64,000 bases of DNA from Candidatus Poseidoniales archaeon (lineage in GTDB: Archaea; Thermoplasmatota; Poseidoniia; Poseidoniales; Poseidoniaceae). The DNA lies in the NCBI GenBank assembly GCA_038146705.1, contig JAYQSB010000003.1, positions 2,968 through 66,967 on the forward strand, in the 5' to 3' direction. A program made the translations under genes and the position numbers. Of the stretch, positions 1 to 14,018 are shown piece after piece. How positions within the stretch are numbered: the stretch's first letter is position 1; every line of letters starts with the position of its first letter. Below the pieces are notes generated by a model. That model searched no databases. It was not told the DNA's origin and saw only the letters and a list, made by a program, of their open reading frames with translations.

Positions 1-3000
1 GCCCCAGGTCACAATTCTGGCGGTGGTAGTTACGCAGAAGACACCGGTGCAGGTGCTGATGGTCACCTTGTTGTTGTGAATGACACACGTATCACAATCG
101 ATGATGCATATTCATTCCACCCATCAATCGGCGTCGACATGCAAGGTAACACACACATTGCTTGGATGGATGGCCGAAACTATGGATTTGAAAAGGATGT
201 GAACTACGAGACATTCTACACCAAACTCCGACTTCAAGGCGCTGGTGCATGGGACGGTGCTGAACAAGGACTGTCCACATTTGCCATCAAGAAAATTGAT
301 GACACTCCAATTTCGACGGTTGAAGGTCCAAATGGCTTAGCCCCTGGCCGAGCATACGGTGGTAACTCAGTTTTCCCTTCACTCCTCACAGACGATCAAA
401 ACAATGTCCACATCGCTTGGGTTGACTCAGGCAATGCATCAGCCGATGAGGAAATTCTCTATGTACGACTGAACTCAACTGAATTGACAGGCTCAGGCCT
501 TACCGCTCTCGACCCTTGGGAAGCAATCCCTGTGACAAGTTGGCAATCCAACAAACTTGGACCAAATTCAGGTCGTCAACCGAGCATCGGTATGCCTCCT
601 GCGTTTGCAAATGACTTAGGTAGCGGAGCACACATAGCATGGTCTGATACCAACAAGTGCAGTGACGAGAACAACAACAATCGATTCACGATTTGCTATT
701 CTCACGTTCTTACCGGACAAGTCGATGTCGACTTTGACCTCGGCGAGACCTTCTATCACGTGATCGAACCAGGCGAACAAACCATCTACAACTTGACAAT
801 GAACAACTCAACACCTGGTCCAAAAGACCTCGTTGCTGATACATACATGCTCAACATTTCAGGTGTACCGCAAAATTGGACTGCAACCTTGTACTTCTCG
901 AACAACCACACGGCCATCTTTGATGATACGCCAATTTTCCTTGAGGGCGGAGAAGATATTCGCTTCTACATGCGAGTACGAGCACCATCGATATACCAAG
1001 CCAATGGAGACGAGTTAGCGAATATCGTGGTATCGGCCAAATCGACGAAAGATCCTGCGATTCAAAACGAGTTGAATACACTGACACTGATGGATGTTGT
1101 TCACGGAATCAATCTTGATACATCACACAGTATGGTTGATGTTGAACAAGGCGATCAAGCAATATTCTCTATTACCATTACCAACACTGGAAACGTTCAC
1201 GATGCTTTCGTGTTCTGGGATCCAGCTACGCTCGAAGGCCAACAAGAGTGGCTCCTACCATTCGGATGGCAAGTTGAGTTCCCGATTCGCGTTGAACTTG
1301 ACCCTGGCCAATCTGTTGTCAAGAACTTGGTGATTAGCGTTCCAACTTCTGAAGACCCAGGAGCTTTCGTTCTCTATGTGAAAGGTTGGTCCGAAGGCGA
1401 ACCGATCAAGTCCGTCGAAAAGGGAACCTATGACGTTCTCGAATTGGGTGTTTTCGTTTCGATTCGTTCAACAGGAAACATTGTCTTTAACATCGATGAC
1501 CAAACTGAACAAGTCTTACCTGCAACGATATCAGAATTATCTCGACCAGCAAGCCAACAAAACTCATGTGCAATTTATGAAATCGATGTGACAAAGAATT
1601 TCGATTCAGGCAACCTTGTTTTCACAACACCAGGTGCCCCTGAAGAGCGCCCAGAAGGCATCGCTCTCGAAGCATGGCGACAAGAGCAATGGACAATTGA
1701 TGTTGAATTTGATGTCGACCATCCAAACCCAGAACTTGGTACACCACTCCCATGGACGATTCCAGGTGGCGAAGAATTTGTGACCAACGAAGTTCGAGTG
1801 CATGTCTGTGCTCCGATCAATGCGACCGCTGGTTTAGGTCCAGCGATTACGCTCAAAGCCCATCTTGAAGGATACCCACGAATTTCAGCCTCCAAGATTC
1901 TTTCAACATCCGTCGTTCACGTCTTTGATTTGGATGCTGGTATCGACCCAGAAGTAGGTACGAGTATCGAAGTCAATCCAGGCGAACAAATCACTCTTCC
2001 AATCTCAGTGAAGAACGATGGAAATGGACCAGATCGATTCGATTTCCGACTAGCTCGTGTTACCGACGCTTTCGGCGTTGATGTCATTTGGGACATCGAC
2101 ATTCCACGAGCATCGCTCATGGAATTGTCCGCTGGCACGTACCAAGAATTCGATGTCCTCATGAACGTTCCAAATCAAGTCAAGGCTGGCGAATACACTG
2201 TCGTTCTCCAAGCATTTTCCGAAGAACCATACCCGGATGCAAGCGGTAGGGACACTCGTCTTCGAGACACAGTTGAACTCTCGGTGACCGTCAATGAATT
2301 CCATGACATGCAAATTTCCATGGATTCAAGTGTTGACAATCCAGTCAAGACATCGGCACCAGGTAAGATTGTTTCATTCACGCTGAATGTAACCAACAAT
2401 GGTAACGTTCCTGATGTTCCAACGCTCAACAACCACACTGCAACACAGACTGGTGACGACCTCGTGTGGAACACCATGCCTGGCATGTTTACGCTCACCA
2501 ATTGGTATGTCGTTTGGAAGGTTGTCAAGCAAACCGGTATCGATGCAAGTGAAGTGCAAGACTGTGAGGTGTTTGAAGCACCACCTTCAGCATTCCCAGA
2601 AGATAGTTGTGTCTATCTTGCATACAACGAAGAATACCGACTACCAGAAATGGCGCCATACGAAACCATCACTGTGGTCGCGGAAGTTCACATTGCACCA
2701 ACAGCGGCTTTGAGCACCAAGAATATTGGTTTGAAGGTTGCATCGATGTATGGAGATATGGAGAATGATGGTGATCATGACGATTCTCCAAGTTGGGATG
2801 GCGAAAACCTCGATTCAAACGAATTCATCGTCACACTACGACTACGTGCTCCTAACCTCATCGTGAGAGAAGTTCGTGTGGCCGACACATCGGGTGAAGT
2901 CGACTCGACGTTGCCGATTGGTATCACACTGGTCAACAACGGAAACGTCCATGCAACCGACATCGAAATCGTTCTTTGTGAATACGATAACGAAAACGAT

Positions 3001-3429
3001 GCTGATATCATCCGTGAAATCAAGAAGAACGGCTGTGAAGAAGAGCGCGTCGTCATGCGACAAGTTGTGGGAGCACTGCTTGCACCTGATGCATCTGAAG
3101 ACGAAAAAGAAGTTGAACTCTACCTCCTGTATCCAATTACGGCTGGAAGTAAGGGCGTATATGTCGTCGTCGACCCACAGAACCTCATTGTTGAATCGGA
3201 CGAAGGCGATAACGTCGTTGCTATCAATCAACCACTCGAATCATCGAGTCCGTTCCTTGATGTTGCTTCGGAAGTTGTGTCCAAGACCGCTCTACCATTC
3301 GTGGTGATCGTTCTGACACTTGCTCTCCTCGGCGTTGTCTATCTTGTTGGCCGAAGTCGACGAGATGAGGTCAACAAGCGTATTGCTGAACAATCGTCGT
3401 TGATTTCTGTCCTCAGCGACGAACTCTGA
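1..3429 (+). CDS. Large cell-surface protein, 5' end outside the window; N-terminal repeated HIAW-D blades, multiple CARDB/Ig-like modules, C-terminal TM anchor
   Basis: The reading frame is open from nt 1, so the GTG at 76 is only the first start-like codon. Repeats GNTHIAWMDGRN, NNVHIAWVDSGN and GAHIAWSDTNK are present. There are four or more modules with ITITNTGNVHDAF, SVKNDGNGPDRF, LNVTNNGNVPDVP and ITLVNNGNVHATD. The C-terminal hydrophobic helix ALPFVVIVLTLALLGVVYLVG is followed by RSRRD. Confidence 0.7.
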   Translation, partial: APGHNSGGGSYAEDTGAGADGHLVVVNDTRITIDDAYSFHPSIGVDMQGNTHIAWMDGRNYGFEKDVNYETFYTKLRLQGAGAWDGAEQGLSTFAIKKIDDTPISTVEGPNGLAPGRAYGGNSVFPSLLTDDQNNVHIAWVDSGNASADEEILYVRLNSTELTGSGLTALDPWEAIPVTSWQSNKLGPNSGRQPSIGMPPAFANDLGSGAHIAWSDTNKCSDENNNNRFTICYSHVLTGQVDVDFDLGETFYHVIEPGEQTIYNLTMNNSTPGPKDLVADTYMLNISGVPQNWTATLYFSNNHTAIFDDTPIFLEGGEDIRFYMRVRAPSIYQANGDELANIVVSAKSTKDPAIQNELNTLTLMDVVHGINLDTSHSMVDVEQGDQAIFSITITNTGNVHDAFVFWDPATLEGQQEWLLPFGWQVEFPIRVELDPGQSVVKNLVISVPTSEDPGAFVLYVKGWSEGEPIKSVEKGTYDVLELGVFVSIRSTGNIVFNIDDQTEQVLPATISELSRPASQQNSCAIYEIDVTKNFDSGNLVFTTPGAPEERPEGIALEAWRQEQWTIDVEFDVDHPNPELGTPLPWTIPGGEEFVTNEVRVHVCAPINATAGLGPAITLKAHLEGYPRISASKILSTSVVHVFDLDAGIDPEVGTSIEVNPGEQITLPISVKNDGNGPDRFDFRLARVTDAFGVDVIWDIDIPRASLMELSAGTYQEFDVLMNVPNQVKAGEYTVVLQAFSEEPYPDASGRDTRLRDTVELSVTVNEFHDMQISMDSSVDNPVKTSAPGKIVSFTLNVTNNGNVPDVPTLNNHTATQTGDDLVWNTMPGMFTLTNWYVVWKVVKQTGIDASEVQDCEVFEAPPSAFPEDSCVYLAYNEEYRLPEMAPYETITVVAEVHIAPTAALSTKNIGLKVASMYGDMENDGDHDDSPSWDGENLDSNEFIVTLRLRAPNLIVREVRVADTSGEVDSTLPIGITLVNNGNVHATDIEIVLCEYDNENDADIIREIKKNGCEEERVVMRQVVGALLAPDASEDEKEVELYLLYPITAGSKGVYVVVDPQNLIVESDEGDNVVAINQPLESSSPFLDVASEVVSKTALPFVVIVLTLALLGVVYLVGRSRRDEVNKRIAEQSSLISVLSDEL

Positions 3430-3460
3430 TTATCGATTATACCTCGAATGAGGTTTTGAC

Positions 3461-4573
3461 ATGGCGAATACAGATTATTATCAAGGCTTCACAAAATCAA
3501 TGGTCAAGAAATTGACAAAAACAAGAGAAGCCCGTCAGGGAGATCCGTTGTACAAACGAAGAAATTCCCGGACTTCTAGAGTGCTAATTCAATATGAGAT
3601 GTTCAAGAATCTTGAAACTGATCATTTAAACAAATACAAAAAAGGATATGTTGTTGTTCTCACCCCAAAAGAATACTTTGAATCTAAAGATACACCTAAA
3701 ACTGATCTGGATTCCAGAATAGAATTGGGAAAGAATGCCATTGTCTATTACCAATTAGATGATGAGGATTGGGACAACCTCCCTATTCAAAATGATTGGA
3801 TCCAGGTTGTAGAAAAATCAAGTGCAAAAGGAGATTGGTCGGGCCATTTTGCAGTCAATATTACAAATGCGACACCGAAGAAGAAATCATTTATTGTTCG
3901 AAAAGATGAAACTAAAGATCACAATAGCTTCAAATGGATGAAGAGAAAAGTGAAAAATTTGAAACGGAGAGTTGACAATGGGCTTGGAGGAAAAGGCTTA
4001 GGGAATTATGATTTTGACTATTGTGATGAAGATACCCTTGAAAAAACATTATTTCAATTAGCATATTATTTCTGGAATATGAAGGGTATTAATGATGTTT
4101 TAGTTAAGGAATATGACAACGGTATTGGGTTTGGGCAAAATGGTCAAATAGATAAGAATAACATGACAAAACCTAAGTTCAAAACATGGTTGAAAGAATC
4201 CAAAGAGGCAGTGGAAAAATATGTACAAAAACATAACCTTGACGATAAGAAAAAATTAGAAGAAAGTAGAATTTTTAGAAATGGAAAAGTCGTTTGTCCT
4301 CTATGCTTACAACCGATGAAGGCGGAAGATTTGACATCGGTTATTGAACAAGACCTTGGGCGCACCAGTGCAGGACAAACAATTACCTCTATTGTTTTAA
4401 TGCACATCAATCCACTGAGGCCAGGAGAATTTAATCATAGACCATTCAACTTAGGTTGGGGACATAAGTGGTGCAATACGATTCAAGAGAATTTACAGAT
4501 TGATGAAACCCTAAGTGAATTGGCTAAAATTTTGAAGTCAAACGATTGGAATGTTAAAGAACCCAAGAAATAA
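3461..4573 (+). CDS. HNH / His-Me finger endonuclease-like protein, candidate restriction endonuclease; N-terminal ~275 aa unassigned
   Basis: The C-terminus reads CPLC, then about 30 aa, then LMHINPLRPGEFNHRPFNLGWGHKWCN. This matches the HNH pattern CxxC...(D/E)HIxP...N...NLxx..HxxC. A GAGGT Shine-Dalgarno-like sequence lies 8 nt upstream of the ATG. The gene is AT-rich and convergent with a methyltransferase gene. Confidence 0.55.
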   Translation: MANTDYYQGFTKSMVKKLTKTREARQGDPLYKRRNSRTSRVLIQYEMFKNLETDHLNKYKKGYVVVLTPKEYFESKDTPKTDLDSRIELGKNAIVYYQLDDEDWDNLPIQNDWIQVVEKSSAKGDWSGHFAVNITNATPKKKSFIVRKDETKDHNSFKWMKRKVKNLKRRVDNGLGGKGLGNYDFDYCDEDTLEKTLFQLAYYFWNMKGINDVLVKEYDNGIGFGQNGQIDKNNMTKPKFKTWLKESKEAVEKYVQKHNLDDKKKLEESRIFRNGKVVCPLCLQPMKAEDLTSVIEQDLGRTSAGQTITSIVLMHINPLRPGEFNHRPFNLGWGHKWCNTIQENLQIDETLSELAKILKSNDWNVKEPKK

Positions 4574-4592
4574 TTAGAGTGGAATTTTCATT

Positions 4593-7280
4593 CTAGAATA
4601 ATTTTTGCTGATGTGTCCCGTTGTCATTCAACGTTGATGCAATCGGTTCTGAGAAGCTATCTATCCTTCCCGCCCGTCGTTTTGATAATTCAAAATAATT
4701 CACATCCATTTCGATACCGATACCTTTCCTGCCCATGTTCCTAGCAACAATAGCTGTGGTTCCCGAACCTGAAAACGGGTCAAGGACAATTTCACCTTTG
4801 TTCGTGAAATAGGAAATAGAGAGTTGAGGTATATCCTCTGGAAATGGAGCAGTGTGACCAAATCGATTGACGCCCTTGCTGTCAATTTTGATGACGGGTG
4901 AGAACGATTTGATGTTCGAATCAAGGAGGTTTTCTTCTTGATTCTCGTTTCGCCGTAATTCACCTGGTTTTTTGAAGACGAACATGTGCTCATAACAATT
5001 TGCAGGGCGTTGATAATACGGCGTAAATTTTCCATCGTTTTTATGCCGATTGCTTTGAGTCTCACCTTTGTCCCAAATGATGTTGTCGAGGATTTCAAAT
5101 CCGCAATGTAAGAAAAGCAAAATGGTGTATGCACCGAGAGGTATTCTCTTCTCTCCCATTTTTGAATTCACTATAATTTCTTCATTTCCATACGTGTCCC
5201 CAATATTGTAGAAGAACACGCCACCGTCCTTCAATACTCTGAAACATTGTTCATTGATGAGAAGCATATCTCGAAGGTACATGTACAAATTAGGCCACTG
5301 AGAGTATTCTCTCGCATTGAAATATGGTGGTGAAGTAACTTCATGATCGATTGATTGTTCAGCCATCCCTGCCATGATTTCTGCACAATGTCCATGAAGG
5401 AACATATCCGATGTCGCTGTGTCGAGCATTGGTGATGCCGTTCTTCGTTGCTTTTTTGGTTGACCACAAAATCCATGAGGAAAAATACGAGTCATAAAGT
5501 CAGATTCACAAAAATTACTCCAAGAAGTTGACATGCCCTTGTCTACATTTCTCGGCATTTGGAATTGTTCGAGCGCTTCTTCTGGTTGCAAATGCAAGAA
5601 ATTTCGCTTCAGGTCTTCACACGTTCTCTCAAACACAGCAGTAGAATTCGATTGCACAACGAGAATTTTATCATCTTCGTATGTGTAATAATTTACGAGC
5701 ATTCTTGTGAGATCAAATTCATCAAGTATATTGACAACATCTTTCCTGAACTTTTGTGTTAACTCTCTTGGAATGACATTATTTGGGTTTGAACCCAACA
5801 GCGAATCTTGCATCATATTCGACTTTCTTGAATATCGTTTACCCCGATTTGTTTTACTACGTGAGCCACATAAGTTATTCTTGCACTCCCAACTTCGTAT
5901 ACCGATTTCAGGAAATGAATTCCCAGAAATTTCGAGACTTCCACATTCAGGACAAGGTATTTTTCTATCTTCAAAATCGTTTTTGAAGAAGGTCACAAGT
6001 AAATCGTATTCATTGACCACATCTGTGATTCCTGGTCGTTCGCTGGGTTCTTTTTTCAGAATGAAACAATCTTGAAATGAAAACCCGATATCAATGTTTT
6101 TGAACGTCAGGATTTCCTTTTTCATCTTGTTCTTTAGAACTTCTGATGTAGCGACGACATCTTTGAATTTCATTTTTCCTTTGAGAAAGAGATTGATGTT
6201 TTTCTCATCTTCATCGGTCAACTCGATGTTGTGGTTGTACTCTATCATTTGACGAGCAATTTTTCCACCATTGTAGTAGTGCCTTTCCTCTCTATAATGG
6301 CGAAATTTCTCGCAAAAAACGAGAATTTTTGCATACAGTTCCCATTTTATGTTTTGATTGTTTACCACCACATCCGAAATTTTGATGGTCAATGTTTTGT
6401 GATTTTCAATTGAGGCGTACATCGAAGCAATTATGTTCGTTATTTCATCAATAGCCTCATCCTTCTTTTGATATGGTTTGAAAAATGATTGATCGATATC
6501 CAAATGAATGAGGCCATACGTTTCCGCTTCATTTGGAAAACAAACGGAATCATAATGTTGGGTAAATGACAAAATTGCATTTTCTCGGGACACCATCCCT
6601 TTATCATGACACAATTTTTTCAATTGTTTTTGCTCAGCCTTCGATAAATCTTTTTTGAGGAACTTCGTATTGCTCTTAAATATTTGATGGCACGACCTCT
6701 CTGCATGTTCATTCCAAGCAACCAATCTTGAAAATAGAAAGTTGACATAATCAAACACTCTTTTTGTCTTTCCATCTTTGATGGCTTCTTCCAACTTTTG
6801 TTTGAATTCCTCGACAGCGTCTTGACTTGTCTTGTGTTTCCCAATATATGTCTTCAACGAGAAGCCATTTGTCAATTTATTTGTGCCAACAGCATGAATC
6901 CTGTCTTGTAAATGTGCTTCAATGCGACGAAAATCATCTTCTAAATTGTAATCAAGAACTCGCCTAAGGCGGTCTTTCTCATACCTGCCAAGTCGGATGT
7001 CTCCAGCTTGTTCAATACTTTTGACGACTTTTTCCAAACGTTTTCTGTTGCCTACAAAGGCATCGGTAATGATGCACTCAACAATATTTTCTTGCAATTC
7101 CTTGGGCTTTTCATCAAGCTCCGGAAGTTCAATCGTTGATAGTTCCAATTTGACATGTATTCTTTCTAGAAATTGCTTAATCCAAAGCACAGATTCTTGT
7201 GCAATGAATTGCATATCAACGAACCGCCACCGACTGCGAATAAACTTTTCATCAACAATCCATAGGTTTCTGTGAACCAT
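4593..7280 (-). CDS. Beta-class N4/N6 DNA methyltransferase (PF01555-like) with ~600-aa uncharacterised N-terminal extension containing a zinc ribbon
   Basis: The C-terminal ~280 aa carry motif IV DHEVTSPPYFNAREY followed by motif I VLDPFSGSGTTAIVA, the beta-class order. The extension contains CPECGS...WECKNNLCG, with the CPEC codons at about 5943-5954. The ATG at 7278-7280 overlaps the xthA stop. Confidence 0.75.
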   Translation of the reverse strand: MVHRNLWIVDEKFIRSRWRFVDMQFIAQESVLWIKQFLERIHVKLELSTIELPELDEKPKELQENIVECIITDAFVGNRKRLEKVVKSIEQAGDIRLGRYEKDRLRRVLDYNLEDDFRRIEAHLQDRIHAVGTNKLTNGFSLKTYIGKHKTSQDAVEEFKQKLEEAIKDGKTKRVFDYVNFLFSRLVAWNEHAERSCHQIFKSNTKFLKKDLSKAEQKQLKKLCHDKGMVSRENAILSFTQHYDSVCFPNEAETYGLIHLDIDQSFFKPYQKKDEAIDEITNIIASMYASIENHKTLTIKISDVVVNNQNIKWELYAKILVFCEKFRHYREERHYYNGGKIARQMIEYNHNIELTDEDEKNINLFLKGKMKFKDVVATSEVLKNKMKKEILTFKNIDIGFSFQDCFILKKEPSERPGITDVVNEYDLLVTFFKNDFEDRKIPCPECGSLEISGNSFPEIGIRSWECKNNLCGSRSKTNRGKRYSRKSNMMQDSLLGSNPNNVIPRELTQKFRKDVVNILDEFDLTRMLVNYYTYEDDKILVVQSNSTAVFERTCEDLKRNFLHLQPEEALEQFQMPRNVDKGMSTSWSNFCESDFMTRIFPHGFCGQPKKQRRTASPMLDTATSDMFLHGHCAEIMAGMAEQSIDHEVTSPPYFNAREYSQWPNLYMYLRDMLLINEQCFRVLKDGGVFFYNIGDTYGNEEIIVNSKMGEKRIPLGAYTILLFLHCGFEILDNIIWDKGETQSNRHKNDGKFTPYYQRPANCYEHMFVFKKPGELRRNENQEENLLDSNIKSFSPVIKIDSKGVNRFGHTAPFPEDIPQLSISYFTNKGEIVLDPFSGSGTTAIVARNMGRKGIGIEMDVNYFELSKRRAGRIDSFSEPIASTLNDNGTHQQKLF

Positions 7281-8062
7281 TATTCAAGAGAAAAATCGGC
7301 GACAACTGGTGCATGGTCTGAAACGTCTAATCCACCCTGCCTTACAATGTTGCACGACGTTATGGCAGGGATGTTGTTTGGATTTATCAGGATGTAATCA
7401 ATCCGCCATCCCCTGTTTTTTGCTCGTGCTTGGCCTCTGTTGGACCACCAAGAGTATTCTTGATGTCCTTCGCCATGCATATGCCGAAACACATCACACC
7501 ATCCATCGCTAAGCAGTTTCGTCATCCATTGTCGTTCATGTGGAAGGAATCCCGATGTCTTTGCGTTTGCTTTGGGGTTCCAAATATCGTCTTCTGTATG
7601 AGCAATATTCAGATCACCAACGACAAAAACAGGTTTTTCATGCTGGAGGTAGGGTTGTAGAAATGAACGCCAATCCTCCATCCATTGCTCTTTATACACT
7701 TGGCGCTCTTGTTTACTTGAACCACTTGGTAGATAGGTGTTAATACAGATGCAAGACTCATGCTCAGTGACAAGGACTCTCCCCTCACTATCTGTTGGGT
7801 CGAGGGGAGAATTCATACCGGTTTGCAGAATACTGAATGGTTGTTTTGATAATGTTGCAACACCGGAATAGCCTTTTTTTTCAGCGGGGTGCAAATGGAC
7901 ATGATAACCACTTGGCCATGACCAGTTTGCCGGTAACTGTTCATCTAAGGTTCTCGTTTCTTGCAAGAGGATGATGTCGGCATCGAACGATGAAAAGTAT
8001 TGGTCAATGCCTTTTCGAATCGCCGCCCTTAATCCATTGACATTCCATGTTACAACCCGCAT
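7280..8062 (-). CDS. xthA: Exodeoxyribonuclease III / AP endonuclease
   Basis: VVTWNVNGLRA, LLQETR, VGDLNIAH and SDHAPV are hallmarks of the ExoIII/EEP family. Confidence 0.9.
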   Translation of the reverse strand: MRVVTWNVNGLRAAIRKGIDQYFSSFDADIILLQETRTLDEQLPANWSWPSGYHVHLHPAEKKGYSGVATLSKQPFSILQTGMNSPLDPTDSEGRVLVTEHESCICINTYLPSGSSKQERQVYKEQWMEDWRSFLQPYLQHEKPVFVVGDLNIAHTEDDIWNPKANAKTSGFLPHERQWMTKLLSDGWCDVFRHMHGEGHQEYSWWSNRGQARAKNRGWRIDYILINPNNIPAITSCNIVRQGGLDVSDHAPVVADFSLE

Positions 8063-8094
8063 ACTCCGTGGAATTCAAGGAGGGGGATAAATGT

Positions 8095-9174
8095 TCAAGA
8101 GCGTAGTTTTGAAGCAACAATTTTGCCCGATTGGACCGCCGCATCAGCAAGCAGATACTCGGAAGAGAGCCAGTCTCCGGCAAGATACAAACCGTGTTCT
8201 GCAAACATGTCCTCTGAATTTTCACTTCTCATCCAGATCGGAATTTTTGCTTGCTCACGGACATTGACAATGTGTTGACGCCAACCGGCCAATCTCTCAT
8301 CAAGAAATGTAGAGAGAATCTCGAGCCCATTTTCATTTGGTGAAGAAATTAACTTTGCAGCAGATAAGATCGAGCCAGGATGAACCATCCGCGGCTGTAT
8401 TCGTGACAAATGGTAAACGAATTGTTGTTGTTCTGCATCGATGATGCAATGATAGTTCCCCATCGGATTTGACGATAACGCTACATCAATCGTTGAAGCA
8501 TACTGTTGTTGTATCGGTTGTAAGTCTCCGATACCGAGGGGTTTGAGTAATTTTTTTGTTGACTTGGGGCCACATGCCAAAACAACAGCATCCGCATCCA
8601 CTCTTCGTTTATCGACAAGTTGAACGCCAGTCTCATCAATTGAATTGACCTTGCAATTTGTCTCGACATACACACCGATTTCGTCCAAGGCACTGGCAAA
8701 GCGTCCGATGATGCCTGCCCAGCCTTCTGCAGTGACCATTGCATTGTGTTTGGCAAATCCTTTGATTCTCTCAGATGAAGAACGAAGATTCATCCCATAT
8801 GTAGCAAGAAGATTGAGGCAACGCACGCCATAACTTGAATCGTCCATTGTACGAATTGCACGTCGAAATTCCGCAATCCCTGCGTACGATTGAGGGCGTA
8901 AGAAACCATTTGTGGTGATGATGTGCTCAATTCGCAATGGTTGCATATGCAACCTCACTCGACTCAACTTCTTTGTCAAACGATGCATGGGTCCATTTTT
9001 CAATAGGAGATGTGGGCCAAATCCAAAGGAAATTCGGCCGACTTGTTCCGAAGTTCCACGGCCACCGATACGGTCTTTCGATTCTAAAAGAACCACATGA
9101 TGATTCTCAGCGGACAGGTGAAGAGCAGCGGATAAACCACTCAAGCCCGAACCTATCACAACGATTTTGGCCAT
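8095..9174 (-). CDS. FAD/NAD(P)-binding oxidoreductase (amine oxidase / phytoene desaturase-like)
   Basis: After re-picking the start at M40 there is an N-terminal Rossmann motif, KIVVIGSGLSGLSAA...LLESKDRIGGR. A C-terminal LYLAGDW is present. The longer ORF-track start would overlap nadC. Confidence 0.6.
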   Translation of the reverse strand: MAKIVVIGSGLSGLSAALHLSAENHHVVLLESKDRIGGRGTSEQVGRISFGFGPHLLLKNGPMHRLTKKLSRVRLHMQPLRIEHIITTNGFLRPQSYAGIAEFRRAIRTMDDSSYGVRCLNLLATYGMNLRSSSERIKGFAKHNAMVTAEGWAGIIGRFASALDEIGVYVETNCKVNSIDETGVQLVDKRRVDADAVVLACGPKSTKKLLKPLGIGDLQPIQQQYASTIDVALSSNPMGNYHCIIDAEQQQFVYHLSRIQPRMVHPGSILSAAKLISSPNENGLEILSTFLDERLAGWRQHIVNVREQAKIPIWMRSENSEDMFAEHGLYLAGDWLSSEYLLADAAVQSGKIVASKLRS

Positions 9175-9246
9175 AAAACATGCTTGATGAACCATTTGAA
9201 AACATTGTTGTATTAGGAAAATGTACTCTGTACATAGGAGGCTATT

Positions 9247-10182
9247 ATGATGGCAGATGATGGACCTCGGATGCCGCATGATAGAGGCCATCTATTGTGG
9301 ACGAGCACAGGTGGTCCCGAACGACCCCTGCTCGCCAGCTTTGACCGTTGGACAACCGCAATTCTTGGTGATGATGATGTCTCTGAGTTTATGATGGCAG
9401 AAGGCCCTGTGCTTGAAGGCAGCATAGTAGCGAAAGAAAATGGTATCATTGCCGGTTGTTCTGCAGTCGATTATATGCTTCAGATTTGGTGTCCCGATAT
9501 CCAAATTTCCTGGAGGGCAAACGATGGGAAATCAGTTCAAAAAGACGATACTATAGCCATGATCAAAGGCAGTTCTGAATCATTATTACGTATGGAACGT
9601 TCAATTCTCAATATTCTCGGCCAATTATCTGGGATTGCGACTGAATCGAATCGGTGGGCGACAATTGCTCCTAAACAAATTGCATGTACAAGGAAAACAG
9701 TTTGGGGTCTTCTTGACAAATGGGCTGTTCATTTGGGAGGAGGTCTCACCCACCGATTGAGTAAAAATGATGCAAAGATGATCAAAGAAAATGATCTTTC
9801 AAGTTTGATTGATGTTGGCACCAACGAGGAACGAATCACATCAATATTGACTGAACTTCACAAGGAAGATTATGGGGCATTTCTAGAGATTGAGGTGAGA
9901 ACAGCGAAAGAAGCAATGCTTGCAGCCGCCGTTTGGAAATCATTTCAACTTGAAGATAAACTTGTGATTATGCTCGACAATATGGCTCCAGAAGACTGCA
10001 AGAAGATTGCTGAGGAAATGGAGCAGTACGAATTACGTGCATCGGTTATCCTCGAAGCAAGTGGAGGCATCACATTTGACCAATTATCTAATTGGAAAGA
10101 ATGCAAAATGGATGTGTTGAGCACAAGTTCTCTCAACCGTGGTACGCAACCACTTGATCTCACATTGCTCATTGAGTTGTAG
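9247..10182 (+). CDS. nadC: Nicotinate-nucleotide pyrophosphorylase (quinolinate phosphoribosyltransferase)
   Basis: IVAKENGIIAG, TRKTVWGL, GGGLTHR and MIKEND fit the NadC family pattern. The start is uncertain (9247 or 9271). Confidence 0.8.
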   Translation: MMADDGPRMPHDRGHLLWTSTGGPERPLLASFDRWTTAILGDDDVSEFMMAEGPVLEGSIVAKENGIIAGCSAVDYMLQIWCPDIQISWRANDGKSVQKDDTIAMIKGSSESLLRMERSILNILGQLSGIATESNRWATIAPKQIACTRKTVWGLLDKWAVHLGGGLTHRLSKNDAKMIKENDLSSLIDVGTNEERITSILTELHKEDYGAFLEIEVRTAKEAMLAAAVWKSFQLEDKLVIMLDNMAPEDCKKIAEEMEQYELRASVILEASGGITFDQLSNWKECKMDVLSTSSLNRGTQPLDLTLLIEL

Positions 10183-10193
10183 GGTGTGTTAGT

Positions 10194-10943
10194 TTGACTG
10201 ACCATGCTGCCGACCCATCTCATCCGAGATATTCCTCCCTTCTCCAACGACAAAAATTGGAACGAGCTAAGAAATTAGGAATGTTAGCAGACAGCGCCCT
10301 CATAGCCCATGGTAGAGGGGAGGCTTTTGATTACCTCCTAGGAGAAAAAACGCATTCATTTGCACATGATGCCATCATTCAAGCATTAGCGGTGCTTAAA
10401 CAAGCACAACATCCTATCTTGAGCGTCAACGGAAACACCGTTGCTCTTGCAGGACTTGAAATCTTACAATTAGCATCACACCTTTCATGCCCTGTAGAAA
10501 TCAATATTTTTTATCGAACACCAGAACGGATGAATGCCCTCCTTACAGAATTGGAACATATCAACAAAGAGCACGACCTTCATGTCAACATCCTGGGGGC
10601 GAACCCCGATGCGACAATACCCGGACTCAAGGGACCGAGAGCAAAATGTGAATCATCGGGAATATTTTCATCCGACGTCATCTTTGTTCCATTAGAAGAT
10701 GGTGATCGCTGTCAAGCACTGAAAAAAATGGGCAAGACCGTCATCGTTGTTGACCTCAATCCAATGTCCAGAAGTGCGATTCACGCATCGATAACAATAG
10801 TCAACGAACTCCATCGAACAATAGAGCATATGATCGAAGTTCTTGAACAAAACCATGACGTTTCAAAAATAGAATCATTCAGCCATCATTCGATTCTAGA
10901 GAGGGCATTGATAACGATTCGTCAAGGTGAGAAGAAGGATTAG
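10194..10943 (+). CDS. Archaeal phosphopantothenate synthetase (4-phosphopantoate--beta-alanine ligase)
   Basis: HPRYSSLL...LIAHGRGEAFDYLLGE is characteristic of the archaeal CoA-pathway enzyme (COG1701). The apparent start is TTG. Confidence 0.75.
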   Translation: MTDHAADPSHPRYSSLLQRQKLERAKKLGMLADSALIAHGRGEAFDYLLGEKTHSFAHDAIIQALAVLKQAQHPILSVNGNTVALAGLEILQLASHLSCPVEINIFYRTPERMNALLTELEHINKEHDLHVNILGANPDATIPGLKGPRAKCESSGIFSSDVIFVPLEDGDRCQALKKMGKTVIVVDLNPMSRSAIHASITIVNELHRTIEHMIEVLEQNHDVSKIESFSHHSILERALITIRQGEKKD

Positions 10944-12124
10944 AATTCTTCATCCAGCAAATCTGCTAGTCGAGTTGCAATTGATGTTCCAACTTGGCTA
11001 CAAGAAGCATAGCCACCGATATCATAGGTGAGTTCTTTTCCTTCTTTGAGATGGTCAGCAACACCTTGGTCAATGCAATTTGCAACACGAAGCAAATCAT
11101 CATCACCGTGCTTCCTGCCGAGGTAATCCATCATCATTTGAATGGAGTTTATTGATGCAATCGGGTTCACTTTGTTTTTACCTGCATGTTTTGGAGATGA
11201 ACCATGGACTGGTTCAAAGAATGCATGGGCGTCACCAACATTTCCCGAAGCAGCCATGCCCATACCGCCTTGCAACACTGCACCAAGGTCGGTGGCAATA
11301 TCGCCGAACATGTTTGAGGTAACAACAACATCATAATGTTCAGGATTCCTTGTCAACCATTGTGTGAATGCATCGATGTATCCATAATCTGATTCAGTTC
11401 CTGGATACTCTTCAGCAATTTCTGTGAATACTCTTCGAAACAACTGACAACCACGTGTGACGTTCGATTTATCGACACAAGTCACTCGATGTGCACCGTC
11501 AGCAGGCGCCCCATTTCTTGTTTTTGCAATCTCAAAACCCATTCGAATCAATCGTTCAGAGCCCTTTTGCGAAATTGGTCGAGCATCATATGCTACTTCA
11601 CCATCGATCCCGGGAAAGTCCATTGCGGGTGGTTCATATTCAGCACGACCCAAGGCTCTATCGGCACTTCTCCGAAGTAATGCGTGGTACAAACCCTCAG
11701 TATTTTCACGAAGAATGGTCATGTCGACCATGCCGGGTTTCCAAACTTGCGTGAACTCGCCATGAATTTTGTGTCGAACCCCTTCGTAGAGTTTGATTGG
11801 CCGAATGTTTGCATACAAATCAAGACCGCTTCGCAACCCAAGAATGACTGAACCTCCTGCAAGATCACCGTTTTCCAAACGTACGCCAGGTGCACCAATT
11901 GCTCCAAGGAAAATCGCATCAGCCTCATCTTTACAGAACTCAAACGAGCCTTCCTCCCATTCCTTACCAGTTTCCTTGTAGTATTGTCCACCACAGGGAA
12001 TCACAGTTTGTTCAAAACCTGAATTGGTATGCTGCTCAATAGTTTGCAGTATTTTTTGAGCCTCCACCGCCACTTCTCTTCCAGTTCCGTCACCTGGGAG
12101 AATTGCAACACGATAGTCGCTCAT
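10940..12124 (-). CDS. Isocitrate / 3-isopropylmalate dehydrogenase family protein
   Basis: [24 protein letters not shown] and NMFGDIATD are present. The start was re-picked at MSDYRV. Substrate cannot be assigned from the sequence alone. Confidence 0.8.
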
Positions 12125-12241: not shown

Positions 12242-12958
12242 TTGCTCTCTCCAATTGAAATAATTGAGAGGAAATACATGGGAGGCTTGATAGGCTGTCA
12301 ATACGCACAGCCAAGTATGTCCGAACACAAGAGCCATGAAAATAAATCTAGTGTGAAGATTGACGATTTGCCACTTGAAATCCAACAATTAAATGACATC
12401 ATGCTCGGTATTCAGCCCGACTGGAATGTTTTCGATTGGATTGCTGAAAAGGCACTTATGGAGATGGAATTAATCGAATGTGATTTGGAAAAAGAACGAT
12501 TGCATGCGGAACAACGCCTCCATAGGATTCAGGATTTAGCCCGCCGATTTCCAGAAAATGAAACCGAAGACCCTTACCAAAAGAACCTCTTTGACTGCTT
12601 TGATGTCGATGATCATAGTACATTCACACGACTTTCTGACCGAGCACAATTGGCAGAAGAACATGATTCAGAATCTGCTTTTGTAAATATGGTTGTTGAT
12701 GTGAACCCCGATACAAATTTTGATGACCCGCTCTTAGCAATATCATGTCAAATCATTCTCATGGGTGTGGAAAAAAGTATTGCTAAAGGACAATCCTTCG
12801 CAACGATTGAAACGATAATACATCAAGCAAAAAGTCATAATTTAAGTGCCGATGAAACCGAAGAAGCCCTTGACTTCCTTCTAACCACAGGTCAATTGAT
12901 TGAAATTGATGATGATTGTTTCATTTTGAATGATTTTGATGATAGTAAAAACGATTGA
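12242..12958 (+). CDS. Hypothetical acidic cytoplasmic protein, possible C-terminal winged-helix-like segment
   Basis: This is the long ORF in a codirectional series with a 4-nt overlap to the next ORF. It is very D/E-rich with no TM segments. The start is uncertain (alternatives 12278 and 12317). Confidence 0.5.
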   Translation: MLSPIEIIERKYMGGLIGCQYAQPSMSEHKSHENKSSVKIDDLPLEIQQLNDIMLGIQPDWNVFDWIAEKALMEMELIECDLEKERLHAEQRLHRIQDLARRFPENETEDPYQKNLFDCFDVDDHSTFTRLSDRAQLAEEHDSESAFVNMVVDVNPDTNFDDPLLAISCQIILMGVEKSIAKGQSFATIETIIHQAKSHNLSADETEEALDFLLTTGQLIEIDDDCFILNDFDDSKND

Positions 12959-13314
12959 TTTTCCAGAATCTACATTTCTTGAGGTTGGTTGAGTTGGGGA
13001 AAAAAGAGCATGCACAACGCATTCTGGATGCACTTGACACATCGAAAAGATTACGAAAACGTCTCATCATCGTTGTTTTATCACTACTTGTTATCGGCGT
13101 CGTGGCCTTTTTCCAAGGATTCAACCTTACACTCATCGTTGGGGTTGAATTACTTCTCTTTGTCTTCCTTTCATTCAGCGTTGACAGGGAACGCCAATCC
13201 ATTGAATATAATCTCGATTTAGGATTTAAAAAATTAGGTTGGACTCGTCCAGAAGAAATTGACGAAAAGACAACACAAAATTTACTGAAAATTATTGGCG
13301 ATGAGAGAACATGA
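12955..13314 (+). CDS. Hypothetical small membrane protein (2 predicted TM)
   Basis: It has ATGA-type 4-nt overlaps with both neighbours. The hydrophobic stretch is LIIVVLSLLVIGVVAFFQGFNLTLIVGVELLLFVFLSF. Confidence 0.45.
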   Translation: MIFQNLHFLRLVELGKKEHAQRILDALDTSKRLRKRLIIVVLSLLVIGVVAFFQGFNLTLIVGVELLLFVFLSFSVDRERQSIEYNLDLGFKKLGWTRPEEIDEKTTQNLLKIIGDERT

Positions 13315-14018
13315 GCAAAGAAATTTCTCAACTTCTTTATCCAATACAACCTCCTTTCAAATCGATATTATTTTGGATATTTCATTTTACAATGACCGGC
13401 ACAGCGTTCATATTTTTTGTCCTCACCCTCTTTTCAATTGATGGATTCTATCTCATGATGATTCTTTTTTTCCAACTGATTACCGTCTTCCTCCAAATTT
13501 TTATTTGGAATATATCCGAGAAAAAGAGAGTCATCCAACTTGAAAAAATTCTCCTTGATTTTGATTCAAGTTGGGATGTTGTTCGAGAATCTGTCCAAAC
13601 CGATGAAGAAGCGGATCTTTTGTACCAAGCGTTTACAAAAGTGCATTTCCAAACACCAGAATCAATTTCACCTCGAATGCAACGAGGTTCAGATGAAAAA
13701 GGGCCTTCTTGGGGAAAAGAAGAAGCGACGTTATCACCGAATGTTGACCGGCGGGATGCAATTCGATCATCATCGACGTATGATGGCTTGGATGGGCCAC
13801 TGCAAGTTGGAGAAAAAATCGTTGAGGAAGCAAATCAAAAATATGCCCAAGAAGCTCAAATTCGCTGGGAGGAGGCGGAAAAGAATGACGCTGATTTAAT
13901 TGAAGCAGGGGTCGAACGACTCGGCGACTTGCTACGAACAGATTGGTTTGAGAAAAATTCTGAGGACGGTGCCGTTGCCCGGCTGATGTCAAATAACAAC
14001 CAAAAGAATGACGAATAG
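13311..14018 (+). CDS. Hypothetical membrane protein (N-terminal 2 TM, charged C-terminal domain)
   Basis: It overlaps the upstream ORF by 4 nt. The hydrophobic N-terminus (ILFWIFHFTMTGTAFIFFVLTLF..., MMILFFQLITVFLQIFIW) is followed by about 150 aa of charged sequence. Confidence 0.5.
   Translation: MSKEISQLLYPIQPPFKSILFWIFHFTMTGTAFIFFVLTLFSIDGFYLMMILFFQLITVFLQIFIWNISEKKRVIQLEKILLDFDSSWDVVRESVQTDEEADLLYQAFTKVHFQTPESISPRMQRGSDEKGPSWGKEEATLSPNVDRRDAIRSSSTYDGLDGPLQVGEKIVEEANQKYAQEAQIRWEEAEKNDADLIEAGVERLGDLLRTDWFEKNSEDGAVARLMSNNNQKNDE

Follow-up and report, generated by a model that had tools for sequence, protein, structure and literature searches.

A BstXI-family nuclease and an 873-residue methyltransferase as a probable Type II restriction-modification system on an insert in a Marine Group II archaeon

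The window analyzed in this work is a 64-kb stretch of DNA (64,000 nucleotides of contig JAYQSB010000003.1, positions 2,968 to 66,967 of the forward strand) from a Poseidoniaceae archaeon of Marine Group II. According to the listing of open reading frames (ORFs), two intact convergent genes fill positions 3455-7279 of this window, between a surface-protein gene with its stop at 3429 and the housekeeping gene xthA with its stop at 7280-7282, and the stops of the two genes lie 19 nt apart, as a preliminary description made from the letters of the sequence had reported. That description had seen in them a nuclease and a methyltransferase forming a candidate novel restriction-modification (RM) or defence module. 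The comparisons presented below make it highly probable that the pair is a functional Type II RM system carried on an insert of 3.8 kb (3455-7279) that was acquired horizontally: the nuclease belongs to a known restriction-endonuclease family, the adjacent methyltransferase has intact motifs, and the same pairing is found in unrelated genomes. The module is an ordinary one, both proteins coming from existing, populated families. The features of the locus are the following, with the residues of the methyltransferase numbered in its 873-aa reading:

3430..3454 (+): left flank, also present in the empty sites, 25 nt 3' of the surface-gene stop; blastn homology to a relative lacking the RM genes (L013) stops precisely at 3454
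3461..4573 (+): Type II restriction endonuclease of the BstXI family, 370 aa (PF09552, PADLOC REase_II)
4295..4486 (+): predicted HNH (beta-beta-alpha-Me) active site and CCHC zinc site, residues 279-342 of the nuclease (invariant residues, DraIII fold match)
4574..4592 (no strand): spacer of 19 nt between the convergent stops, too short for a terminator or a controller gene
4665..5417 (-): predicted active beta-class N4/N6 methyltransferase domain, residues ~600-850 of 873 (PF01555, motifs, Foldseek)
5535..6527 (-): probable degenerate methyltransferase-like domain, residues ~230-560 (HHalign, BLASTP, secondary structure of the AlphaFold2 (AF2) model)
5829..5960 (-): Cys4 zinc ribbon and basic motif, residues 419-462, IPCPECGSLEISGNSFPEIGIRSWECKNNLCGSRSKTNRGKRYS (invariant residues in 32 homologues)
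6528..7214 (-): N-terminal domain (residues 1-229) of the methyltransferase, entirely helical (AF2 secondary structure; conserved in the family)
7215..7279 (-): spacer from the xthA stop to the methyltransferase start; it contains TTTATT (7239-7244), a TATA-like sequence ~27 nt 5' of the ATG
7280..8062 (-): xthA (exodeoxyribonuclease III, Pfam PF03372), right flank, a housekeeping gene outside the module

The nuclease is a BstXI-family protein throughout. The Pfam model RE_BstXI (PF09552) matched its residues 16-335 over positions 4-289 of the 290 in the profile (E = 1.4e-30; 106.9 bits, with a cut-off of 25) and the PADLOC model REase_II matched it with E = 6.8e-40; a search of NCBIfam gave no match for it. 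Among its 111 homologues, some of them annotated as 'BstXI family restriction endonuclease', PF09552 was present in all 110 full-length proteins (P0001-P0110), and a fragment of 208 aa (P0111) had no Pfam match. Because the model spans the full length, the N-terminal stretch of about 275 residues that had been taken as unassigned is covered by the family as well, and the architecture of the nuclease is a standard one rather than an atypical one.

The His-Me (HNH) finger that had been read from the C-terminal CxxC...HINP...N...HxxC motif was confirmed by conservation and by structural comparison. The motif is present, and residues C279, C282, H315, N330, H335, C338, N339 and Q342 are invariant in 36 nuclease homologues. 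The AF2 model (predicted local distance difference test (pLDDT) 90; predicted template-modelling score (pTM) 0.88) places strands at 311-315 and 331-335 and a helix at 336-342, and the top match of this model in the Protein Data Bank (PDB) by Foldseek was DraIII (4l0k; E = 8e-5, probability 1.00), followed by weak matches to Cas9 HNH domains, the Gme HNH, colicins E7 and E9, pyocin AP41 and ScoMcrA, the template-modelling (TM) scores on the target being modest (0.40-0.47). The search of the single sequence against PDB with phmmer gave no match, and DraIII was found by the family profile only: this profile matched DraIII residues 189-224 (E = 0.006), aligning GWGH335xxC338N339xxQ to GFAH198RFC201N202VAQ. 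In DraIII the residue H183 is the general base, N202 is a Mg2+ ligand and C157, C160, H198 and C201 bind zinc, all of them being essential, with mutagenesis having shown this for H198, C201 and N202 (PMC3996161). The cysteines and histidine C279, C282, H335 and C338 of the window's nuclease are spaced like those four zinc ligands, and by homology they are predicted to bind zinc in a CCHC site that would brace the C-terminal HNH site as it does in DraIII, with H315 acting as general base, N330 having a structural role and N339 serving as Mg2+ ligand.

DraIII is thus the best structural and profile match, with the same layout of CxxC...H(base)...HxxC-N(metal), a CCHC zinc site and a helical N-terminal domain, although it has 227 aa against the 370 aa of the window's nuclease, the TM score is ~0.45 on the length of DraIII, the similarity in sequence covers ~36 residues, and its second, N-terminal zinc site is not evident in the window's protein. 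DraIII is an HNH enzyme of Type IIP that cuts the gapped palindrome CACNNN^GTG leaving 3' overhangs (PMC3996161). The BstXI system of Bacillus strain X1 (CCAN6TGG) has the same nuclease family, PF09552 at full length, the likeness coming through the Pfam family model alone, and it would have in common with the window's system the two-component Type II logic and an interrupted-palindrome target. The specificity of BstXI is however not transferable, and no close BstXI relative is present among the matches. Since both BstXI and DraIII cut gapped palindromes, such a target is expected here too, and by homology to BstXI (CCAN6TGG) and DraIII (CACN3GTG) the nuclease would work as a homodimer on an interrupted palindrome, cutting inside the spacer and leaving 3' overhangs. 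A classification of Type II enzymes from 2008 listed BstXI under 'unknown superfamily' (PMC2441816); a literature search on BstXI and HNH returned only that listing and no later open-access fold assignment, and a search on PF09552 returned nothing. With the catalytic and zinc residues named above, the BstXI family could be placed among the DraIII-like HNH enzymes, which is of specialist interest.

The methyltransferase was recognized as a beta-class enzyme of the SPPY type, as had been proposed. PF01555 lies in its C-terminal ~270 residues (E = 1.7e-35), motif IV (TSPPY, 627-631) precedes motif I (DPFSGSGT, 812-819), and both motifs are invariant across the methyltransferase homologues. Its sequence matches in PDB were TTHA0409, rotifer N4CMT, CcrM and M.PvuII, and Foldseek with its model gave 2zif (E = 1.6e-14) and also 8s9m, 6pbd and 1boo, all with the class-I methyltransferase fold. 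The full-length architecture of ~870 aa was found in more than 60 clusters (38-85% identity, 90-98% coverage) and the PADLOC model MTase_II, of 912 positions, matched residues 244-870 with E = 7.5e-157, so that this second protein cannot be called non-standard either. The 873-aa protein would protect host DNA, catalysis residing in the C-terminal beta-class SPPY domain. From its motif the most likely product is N4-methylcytosine (m4C), with methylation of N6-adenine being possible; TTHA0409 and rotifer N4CMT also suggest m4C, and against this assignment stands the fact that SPPY is a tendency and not a rule for N4-cytosine specificity.

The start of this gene had to be revised. In its long reading the ORF covers 4593-7280 on the minus strand and encodes 895 aa, its ATG overlapping the xthA stop by one base. 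The orthologue in a related locus (L008, 873 aa) and the gene calls in L181 and L182 place the start 66 nt further downstream, and on account of these relatives the likely start is M23, at position 7214. Translational coupling of xthA and the methyltransferase through the overlapping ATG and stop was considered and rejected, the relatives showing that the overlap is only due to the frame being open further upstream. The window and L008 have in common the block GATGAAArGTTTATTCrCAGTCGGTGGCGGTTCGTTGAyATG, upstream of which the sequences diverge, and the TTTATT at 7239-7244 is a putative archaeal promoter from which a leaderless methyltransferase mRNA may be transcribed. At the other end of the module the insert starts at 3455, six bases 5' of the nuclease ATG, and an ATTATA sequence, TATA-like and ~24 nt upstream of that ATG, may be the promoter of the nuclease. 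The 25 nt shared with the empty site hold a hairpin, ACCTC-GAAT-GAGGT, at 3441-3454 (ACCTCGAATGAGGT), which is followed by TTT. The spacing of 19 nt from stop to stop is identical in L008 and in L002-L007. No small helix-turn-helix (HTH) controller gene lies upstream of the nuclease, whose ATG follows the surface-gene stop after just 31 nt, and the two convergent genes, 19 nt apart and lacking a controller, would each probably have their own TATA-type promoter and leaderless mRNA.

The pairing of these two proteins is not restricted to the window. In Fusobacterium ulcerans 12-1B a BstXI-family nuclease (WP_008695579) is adjacent to an 891-aa methyltransferase and an HTH controller. This is the same pair of a BstXI-family nuclease and a giant SPPY zinc-ribbon methyltransferase, although the system is bacterial, its genes are divergent whereas those of the window are convergent, a controller of 69 aa precedes the nuclease, and the nuclease is ~30% identical to ours. 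The same pairing was found in Patescibacteria and in several metagenome loci. The matching lengths and sources of the longest contigs suggest a shared contig for the nuclease P0008 and the 837-aa methyltransferase P0149 (7,400 bp each, JGI), and likewise for P0010 and P0162 (838 aa; 4,471 bp each, NCBI/JGI). The earlier proposal of a candidate novel system is not supported in view of the Fusobacterium pair and of the Type II RM models that match both proteins, while its identification of a nuclease-methyltransferase immunity module agrees with the PADLOC matches to REase_II and MTase_II.

A survey of 80 metagenome loci encoding BstXI-family nucleases gave three classes of partner methyltransferase: giant ones of ~850-917 aa with SPPY and the zinc ribbon; short ones of ~416-440 aa with SPPY and the same ribbon inside the catalytic domain; and proteins of ~340-400 aa with DPPY and no ribbon. 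Swapping of methylase partners is normal for Type II systems. The prototype M.BstXI is a Type I-like gamma-class enzyme with separate M and S subunits that makes N6-methyladenine (PMC4335341, PMC3874165), and the single-chain beta-class SPPY partner of 873 aa in the window differs from it. It is therefore the composition of the system and not the nuclease family that differs, and the window's system is one of a BstXI-family nuclease with a non-prototype methylase.

What the large methyltransferase contains besides its catalytic domain deserves closer consideration. The ~600 residues that had been reported as unassigned are still without any Pfam family, but they can be resolved into a helical domain, a degenerate methyltransferase-like domain with a Cys4 ribbon, and a linker. 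We consider it probable that residues 1-229 are helical, that residues 230-560 are a dead duplicate of the catalytic domain which has kept a ribbon recognition module, and that residues 600-850 are the active copy, which has no ribbon. The ribbon cysteines C421, C424, C444 and C449 are invariant in the 32 homologues, as are S453, K454, N456, R457, K459, R460, Y461 and S462 of the basic SKxNRxKRYS motif, with T455 and G458 conserved in at least 90% of them. The link between the two halves came from a short zinc-ribbon methyltransferase of 414 aa that is the nuclease partner in L091. In BLASTP, residues 88-229 of this short protein aligned with 608-749 of the window's methyltransferase (49% identity) and residues 307-387 with 767-847 (57% identity), and in addition its residues 185-394 aligned with 377-562 (31% identity, E = 2e-25), a segment that holds the ribbon (PCPxCG...SWECKNxxC) and RSKxNRGKRxS and that reaches core methyltransferase strands on both sides. 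The HHalign comparison of the profile of short zinc-ribbon enzymes with region 200-590 of the giant family gave E = 1.5e-40, short residues 115-351 corresponding to 243-518 of the large protein.

An alternative that we regard as doubtful, though it is the best placed among those considered, is that the N-terminal 600 residues are an unrelated scaffold for DNA binding or dimerization, which has in common with the short methyltransferases only a mobile zinc ribbon. Several results favour it and count against the duplication. The ribbon itself gives most of the BLASTP and HHalign score. The direct HHalign comparison of the N-region with the C-domain of its own family was insignificant (E = 0.13 over 18 columns), the duplication thus being detectable only through the short intermediates. 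The Pfam searches of residues 1-600 and 229-600 gave no family, and the top 50 Foldseek matches listed for the whole protein resemble only the C-terminal domain of ~270 residues (beta-class methyltransferases of 180-350 residues), none of them pointing to the N-terminal region; the helical domain 1-229 had no match in Pfam or among these PDB structures. When the ribbon columns were removed, however, the flanks still aligned with the core of the methyltransferase, correctly as to order and register (pre-ribbon E = 2.7e-5, post-ribbon E = 2.1e-9), and the score of the pre-ribbon flank was 36.4 compared with 12.6 ± 2.1 and a maximum of 20 in 100 column shuffles; the controls with reversed templates gave E = 0.12 and 0.5. 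In the AF2 model (pLDDT 80, pTM 0.83) strands and helices are predicted to follow one another in 233-542 as they do in 603-835, and in the BLASTP and HHalign alignments the N-terminal copy has DQSF opposite SPPY and VVQSNS opposite DPFxGSG (DPFAGS), which argues against an unrelated scaffold. The phmmer alignments to proteins of ~410-700 aa run from residue ~245 through the ribbon, and the family of the ribbon region, taken at 50% identity, counts 177 representatives (E <= 1e-3), 41 of them at E <= 1e-30. Proteins of 730-800 aa (for example, P0245-P0308) match the ribbon region only (query 370-525, protein ~300-460), so their N-terminus may differ, and they may form a further, fourth class among the methyltransferases with a ribbon.

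Taking the duplication together with the nuclease results, we lean towards a joint reading in which a zinc-ribbon beta-class methyltransferase was duplicated in tandem to give the giant methyltransferase, now a covalent pseudo-heterodimer, and the BstXI nuclease family is to be assigned to the DraIII-like HNH enzymes. After the duplication the upstream copy would have lost catalysis (SPPY to DQSF, FxGxG to QSNS) and kept the ribbon, whereas the downstream copy would have kept catalysis and lost the ribbon, the dead copy with its ribbon supplying recognition and the live copy methylation. The short enzymes of ~415 aa (for example, those of Patescibacteria and L091) have a core 49-57% identical, the same ribbon and basic module and a BstXI-family nuclease as neighbour, but they carry the ribbon between motifs VIII and X of their single active domain, while in the window's protein it lies in the separate degenerate upstream copy and is missing from the active domain. 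CcrM, M1.HpyAVI, the M.BceJIV dimers and METTL3-METTL14 have the same catalytic fold, yet they are non-covalent homo- or heterodimers and not two copies fused in one chain. In those enzymes one subunit may bind or recognize the DNA and the other methylate it, which serves here as an analogy only. The searchable literature contained no description of a covalent pseudo-heterodimer methyltransferase of this kind. The methyltransferases of ~850-900 aa appear then to be fused dead and live pairs, which would make them a tractable model for the partition of recognition and catalysis and, if the reading is true, a counterpart, in one chain and in bacteria and archaea, of the division between recognizing and methylating subunits in CcrM dimers and METTL3-METTL14. 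These by-products leave the basic classification of the locus, an ordinary RM module, unchanged.

The foreign composition that had been claimed for the island was sustained by a windowed analysis. Its GC content is 0.375 (nuclease 0.351, methyltransferase 0.384) compared with 0.439 (standard deviation 0.014, minimum 0.403) in the 529 other 3.8-kb segments of the 64-kb stretch (z = -4.5), and its tetranucleotide distance has z = 8.2, the insert being on both measures the most atypical stretch of the window; the immediate flanks have 44-49% GC, the 47-52% proposed previously being somewhat high. A second stretch of low GC (0.33-0.39), at ~12600-13600, contains hypothetical ORFs without Pfam match and is collinear in L013 and L010, which lack the RM genes. 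Because that stretch is kept in such relatives, low GC alone is a weak sign of foreign DNA here, and it is the tetranucleotide deviation together with the empty sites that settles the foreign origin of 3455-7279 as an insert and not as a local drop in GC.

By the relatives of its xthA the window belongs to the Poseidoniaceae, the Marine Group IIa archaea. We compared eight window proteins by tblastn with 88 fetched loci, and two states of the locus emerged. In one of them the pair is at the identical position (L008, L009, L002-L007, L181 and L182), with the nuclease 78% and the methyltransferase 85-86% identical to those of the window. In the other (L010-L013, four species representatives) the site is empty and the surface-protein gene, 92-99% identical to the window's, converges on xthA across ~35 nt. 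Neither RM gene was found by tblastn in the 75 other Poseidoniales loci (L014-L088). The preliminary description had stated that conservation of both genes at this locus in related genomes would refute it, and this objection applies in part: the pair is kept at the locus in several related lineages, yet four other related species lack it. The blastn alignment with L013 is continuous to 3454 and resumes at 7389, so the left junction is exact (3454/3455) and the last ~105 nt of xthA (7283-7388) remain unaligned to the allele of the empty site. The surface protein, QRPTase, PPS and IDH are 92-99% identical between L013 and the window, xthA 78% and the amine oxidase 68%. The genes of xthA and amine oxidase (window 7280-9171) form a mosaic with respect to L013, L008 and L009, which points to a tract of recombination next to the insert. 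A single allele of these two genes is common to all RM carriers (93-95% identity in xthA and 90-91% in the amine oxidase), and the alleles co-vary with the presence of the module. The direction of their replacement is not polarizable, L013 being equidistant from both other groups, which weakens this part of the history, and because of it the co-transfer of the xthA and amine-oxidase block with the insert is one reading only.

The estimates of dS (synonymous substitutions per synonymous site) between the window and L008 are 0.39 for the RM genes and 0.51-0.55 for the flanking genes. As the values are close, and synteny is identical in L008, L009, L181 and L182, the insert is older than the split of the window and L008 lineages, and it would have entered once, before that split. 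The opposite history, in which the pair was ancestral at the locus and was deleted in L010-L013, we judge unlikely. It draws on the identical position of both genes in every lineage sharing this xthA allele, on the nearness of RM and flanking dS, and on the lack of mobility genes and target duplications, but it must explain why these 3.8 kb are so deviant in composition and why 75 other Poseidoniales loci have neither gene; the nearest homologues outside the clade are just 43-53% identical and scattered in unrelated metagenomes and bacteria, and the four empty sites fall in two divergent groups, so that at least two clean deletions would be required. For an insertion, homologous recombination in the conserved genes on either side is the most likely way of entry, without a dedicated integrase, and the mosaic identities would fit an arrival or a spread of the insert by this route.

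An integrase- or transposase-borne island was rejected as a description of the insert: composition is foreign and an empty site exists, but no integrase or transposase, tRNA target or flanking repeats accompany it. The neighbouring genes are housekeeping genes, with no integrase or transposase among them, and the tRNA search of the entire window found none, in line with the earlier remark on the flanks of the island; the Rfam search of positions 1-12000 gave no match and the search for terminal repeats across 3380-7420 found none at the junctions. In a plasmid collection tblastn matched the catalytic domain only, with no full-length relative of the methyltransferase, and viral contigs gave just distant nuclease relatives (26-28% identity), so neither a plasmid nor a virus is indicated as the vector.

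Whether the system is functional can be approached from the selection on its genes and from the avoidance of its target. Both RM genes are under purifying selection, with dN/dS (the ratio of nonsynonymous to synonymous substitution rates) between the window and L008 of 0.32 for the nuclease and 0.19 for the methyltransferase and with no stops in either. The window was scanned for avoidance of all interrupted palindromes of the 3+3 type, the spacer ranging from 2 to 10 nt and the other spacers serving as internal control: nothing survives correction for 576 tests, the best relevant value before it being p = 5.6e-4 for CACN7GTG, and CCAN6TGG is not depleted (19 observed and 18.7 expected), so that the scan points to no specificity. 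The lack of site avoidance, together with the lack of a controller protein and a nuclease dN/dS six-fold above that of xthA, would be expected if the module were decaying or domesticated, with an inactive nuclease and the methyltransferase as a solitary epigenetic enzyme. We give such decay little credence, because the two reading frames are uninterrupted in all lineages, none of the catalytic or zinc ligands has been lost, and dN/dS is well below 1, relaxed constraint being moreover usual for RM genes.

Finally, it is most improbable that the pair is a new kind of defence system instead of a classical Type II one, as could be thought from the unusual size of the methyltransferase and from its difference to the Type I-like M+S methylase of prototype BstXI (PMC4335341), given that both proteins match only Type II RM models in PADLOC, that there are two genes and no extra ATPase, helicase or sensor, that the same pair occurs with a classical HTH controller in Fusobacterium, and that BstXI-family nucleases elsewhere pair with ordinary methyltransferases of 340-440 aa.

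As a Type II system that is complete and selectively maintained, the module documents an insert variable among strains and species of uncultured Marine Group II archaea, a group in which defence systems and virus-host barriers are poorly characterized and for which our literature search on RM in Poseidoniales returned nothing relevant. Its practical value is modest, although population studies could make use of its clean sites, both occupied and empty.

Some minor observations were made on the related loci. The contigs of L002, L003, L005 and L007, which are independent metagenome contigs of the related population, end 240-290 nt into the 3' end of the methyltransferase gene, which hints at strain heterogeneity or at breaks in coverage where the low-GC insert lies. 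The surface protein (CARDB-type, 1682 aa, the 3' part of its gene covering 76-3429 of the window) is 98-99% identical, with dN/dS of 0.017, to that of lineages in which QRPTase differs by 8-18%, a conservation above that of nearby housekeeping genes and unexpected for a protein of the cell surface. Two loci, L016 (PBRN01000001.1) and L079 (CAXQWT010000038.1), show the synteny of xthA, amine oxidase, QRPTase and PPS typical of Poseidoniaceae (with IDH as well in L016), while the public titles of their metagenome-assembled genomes are 'Pseudobdellovibrionaceae bacterium' and 'Salipiger bermudensis', respectively, which makes contamination during binning likely.

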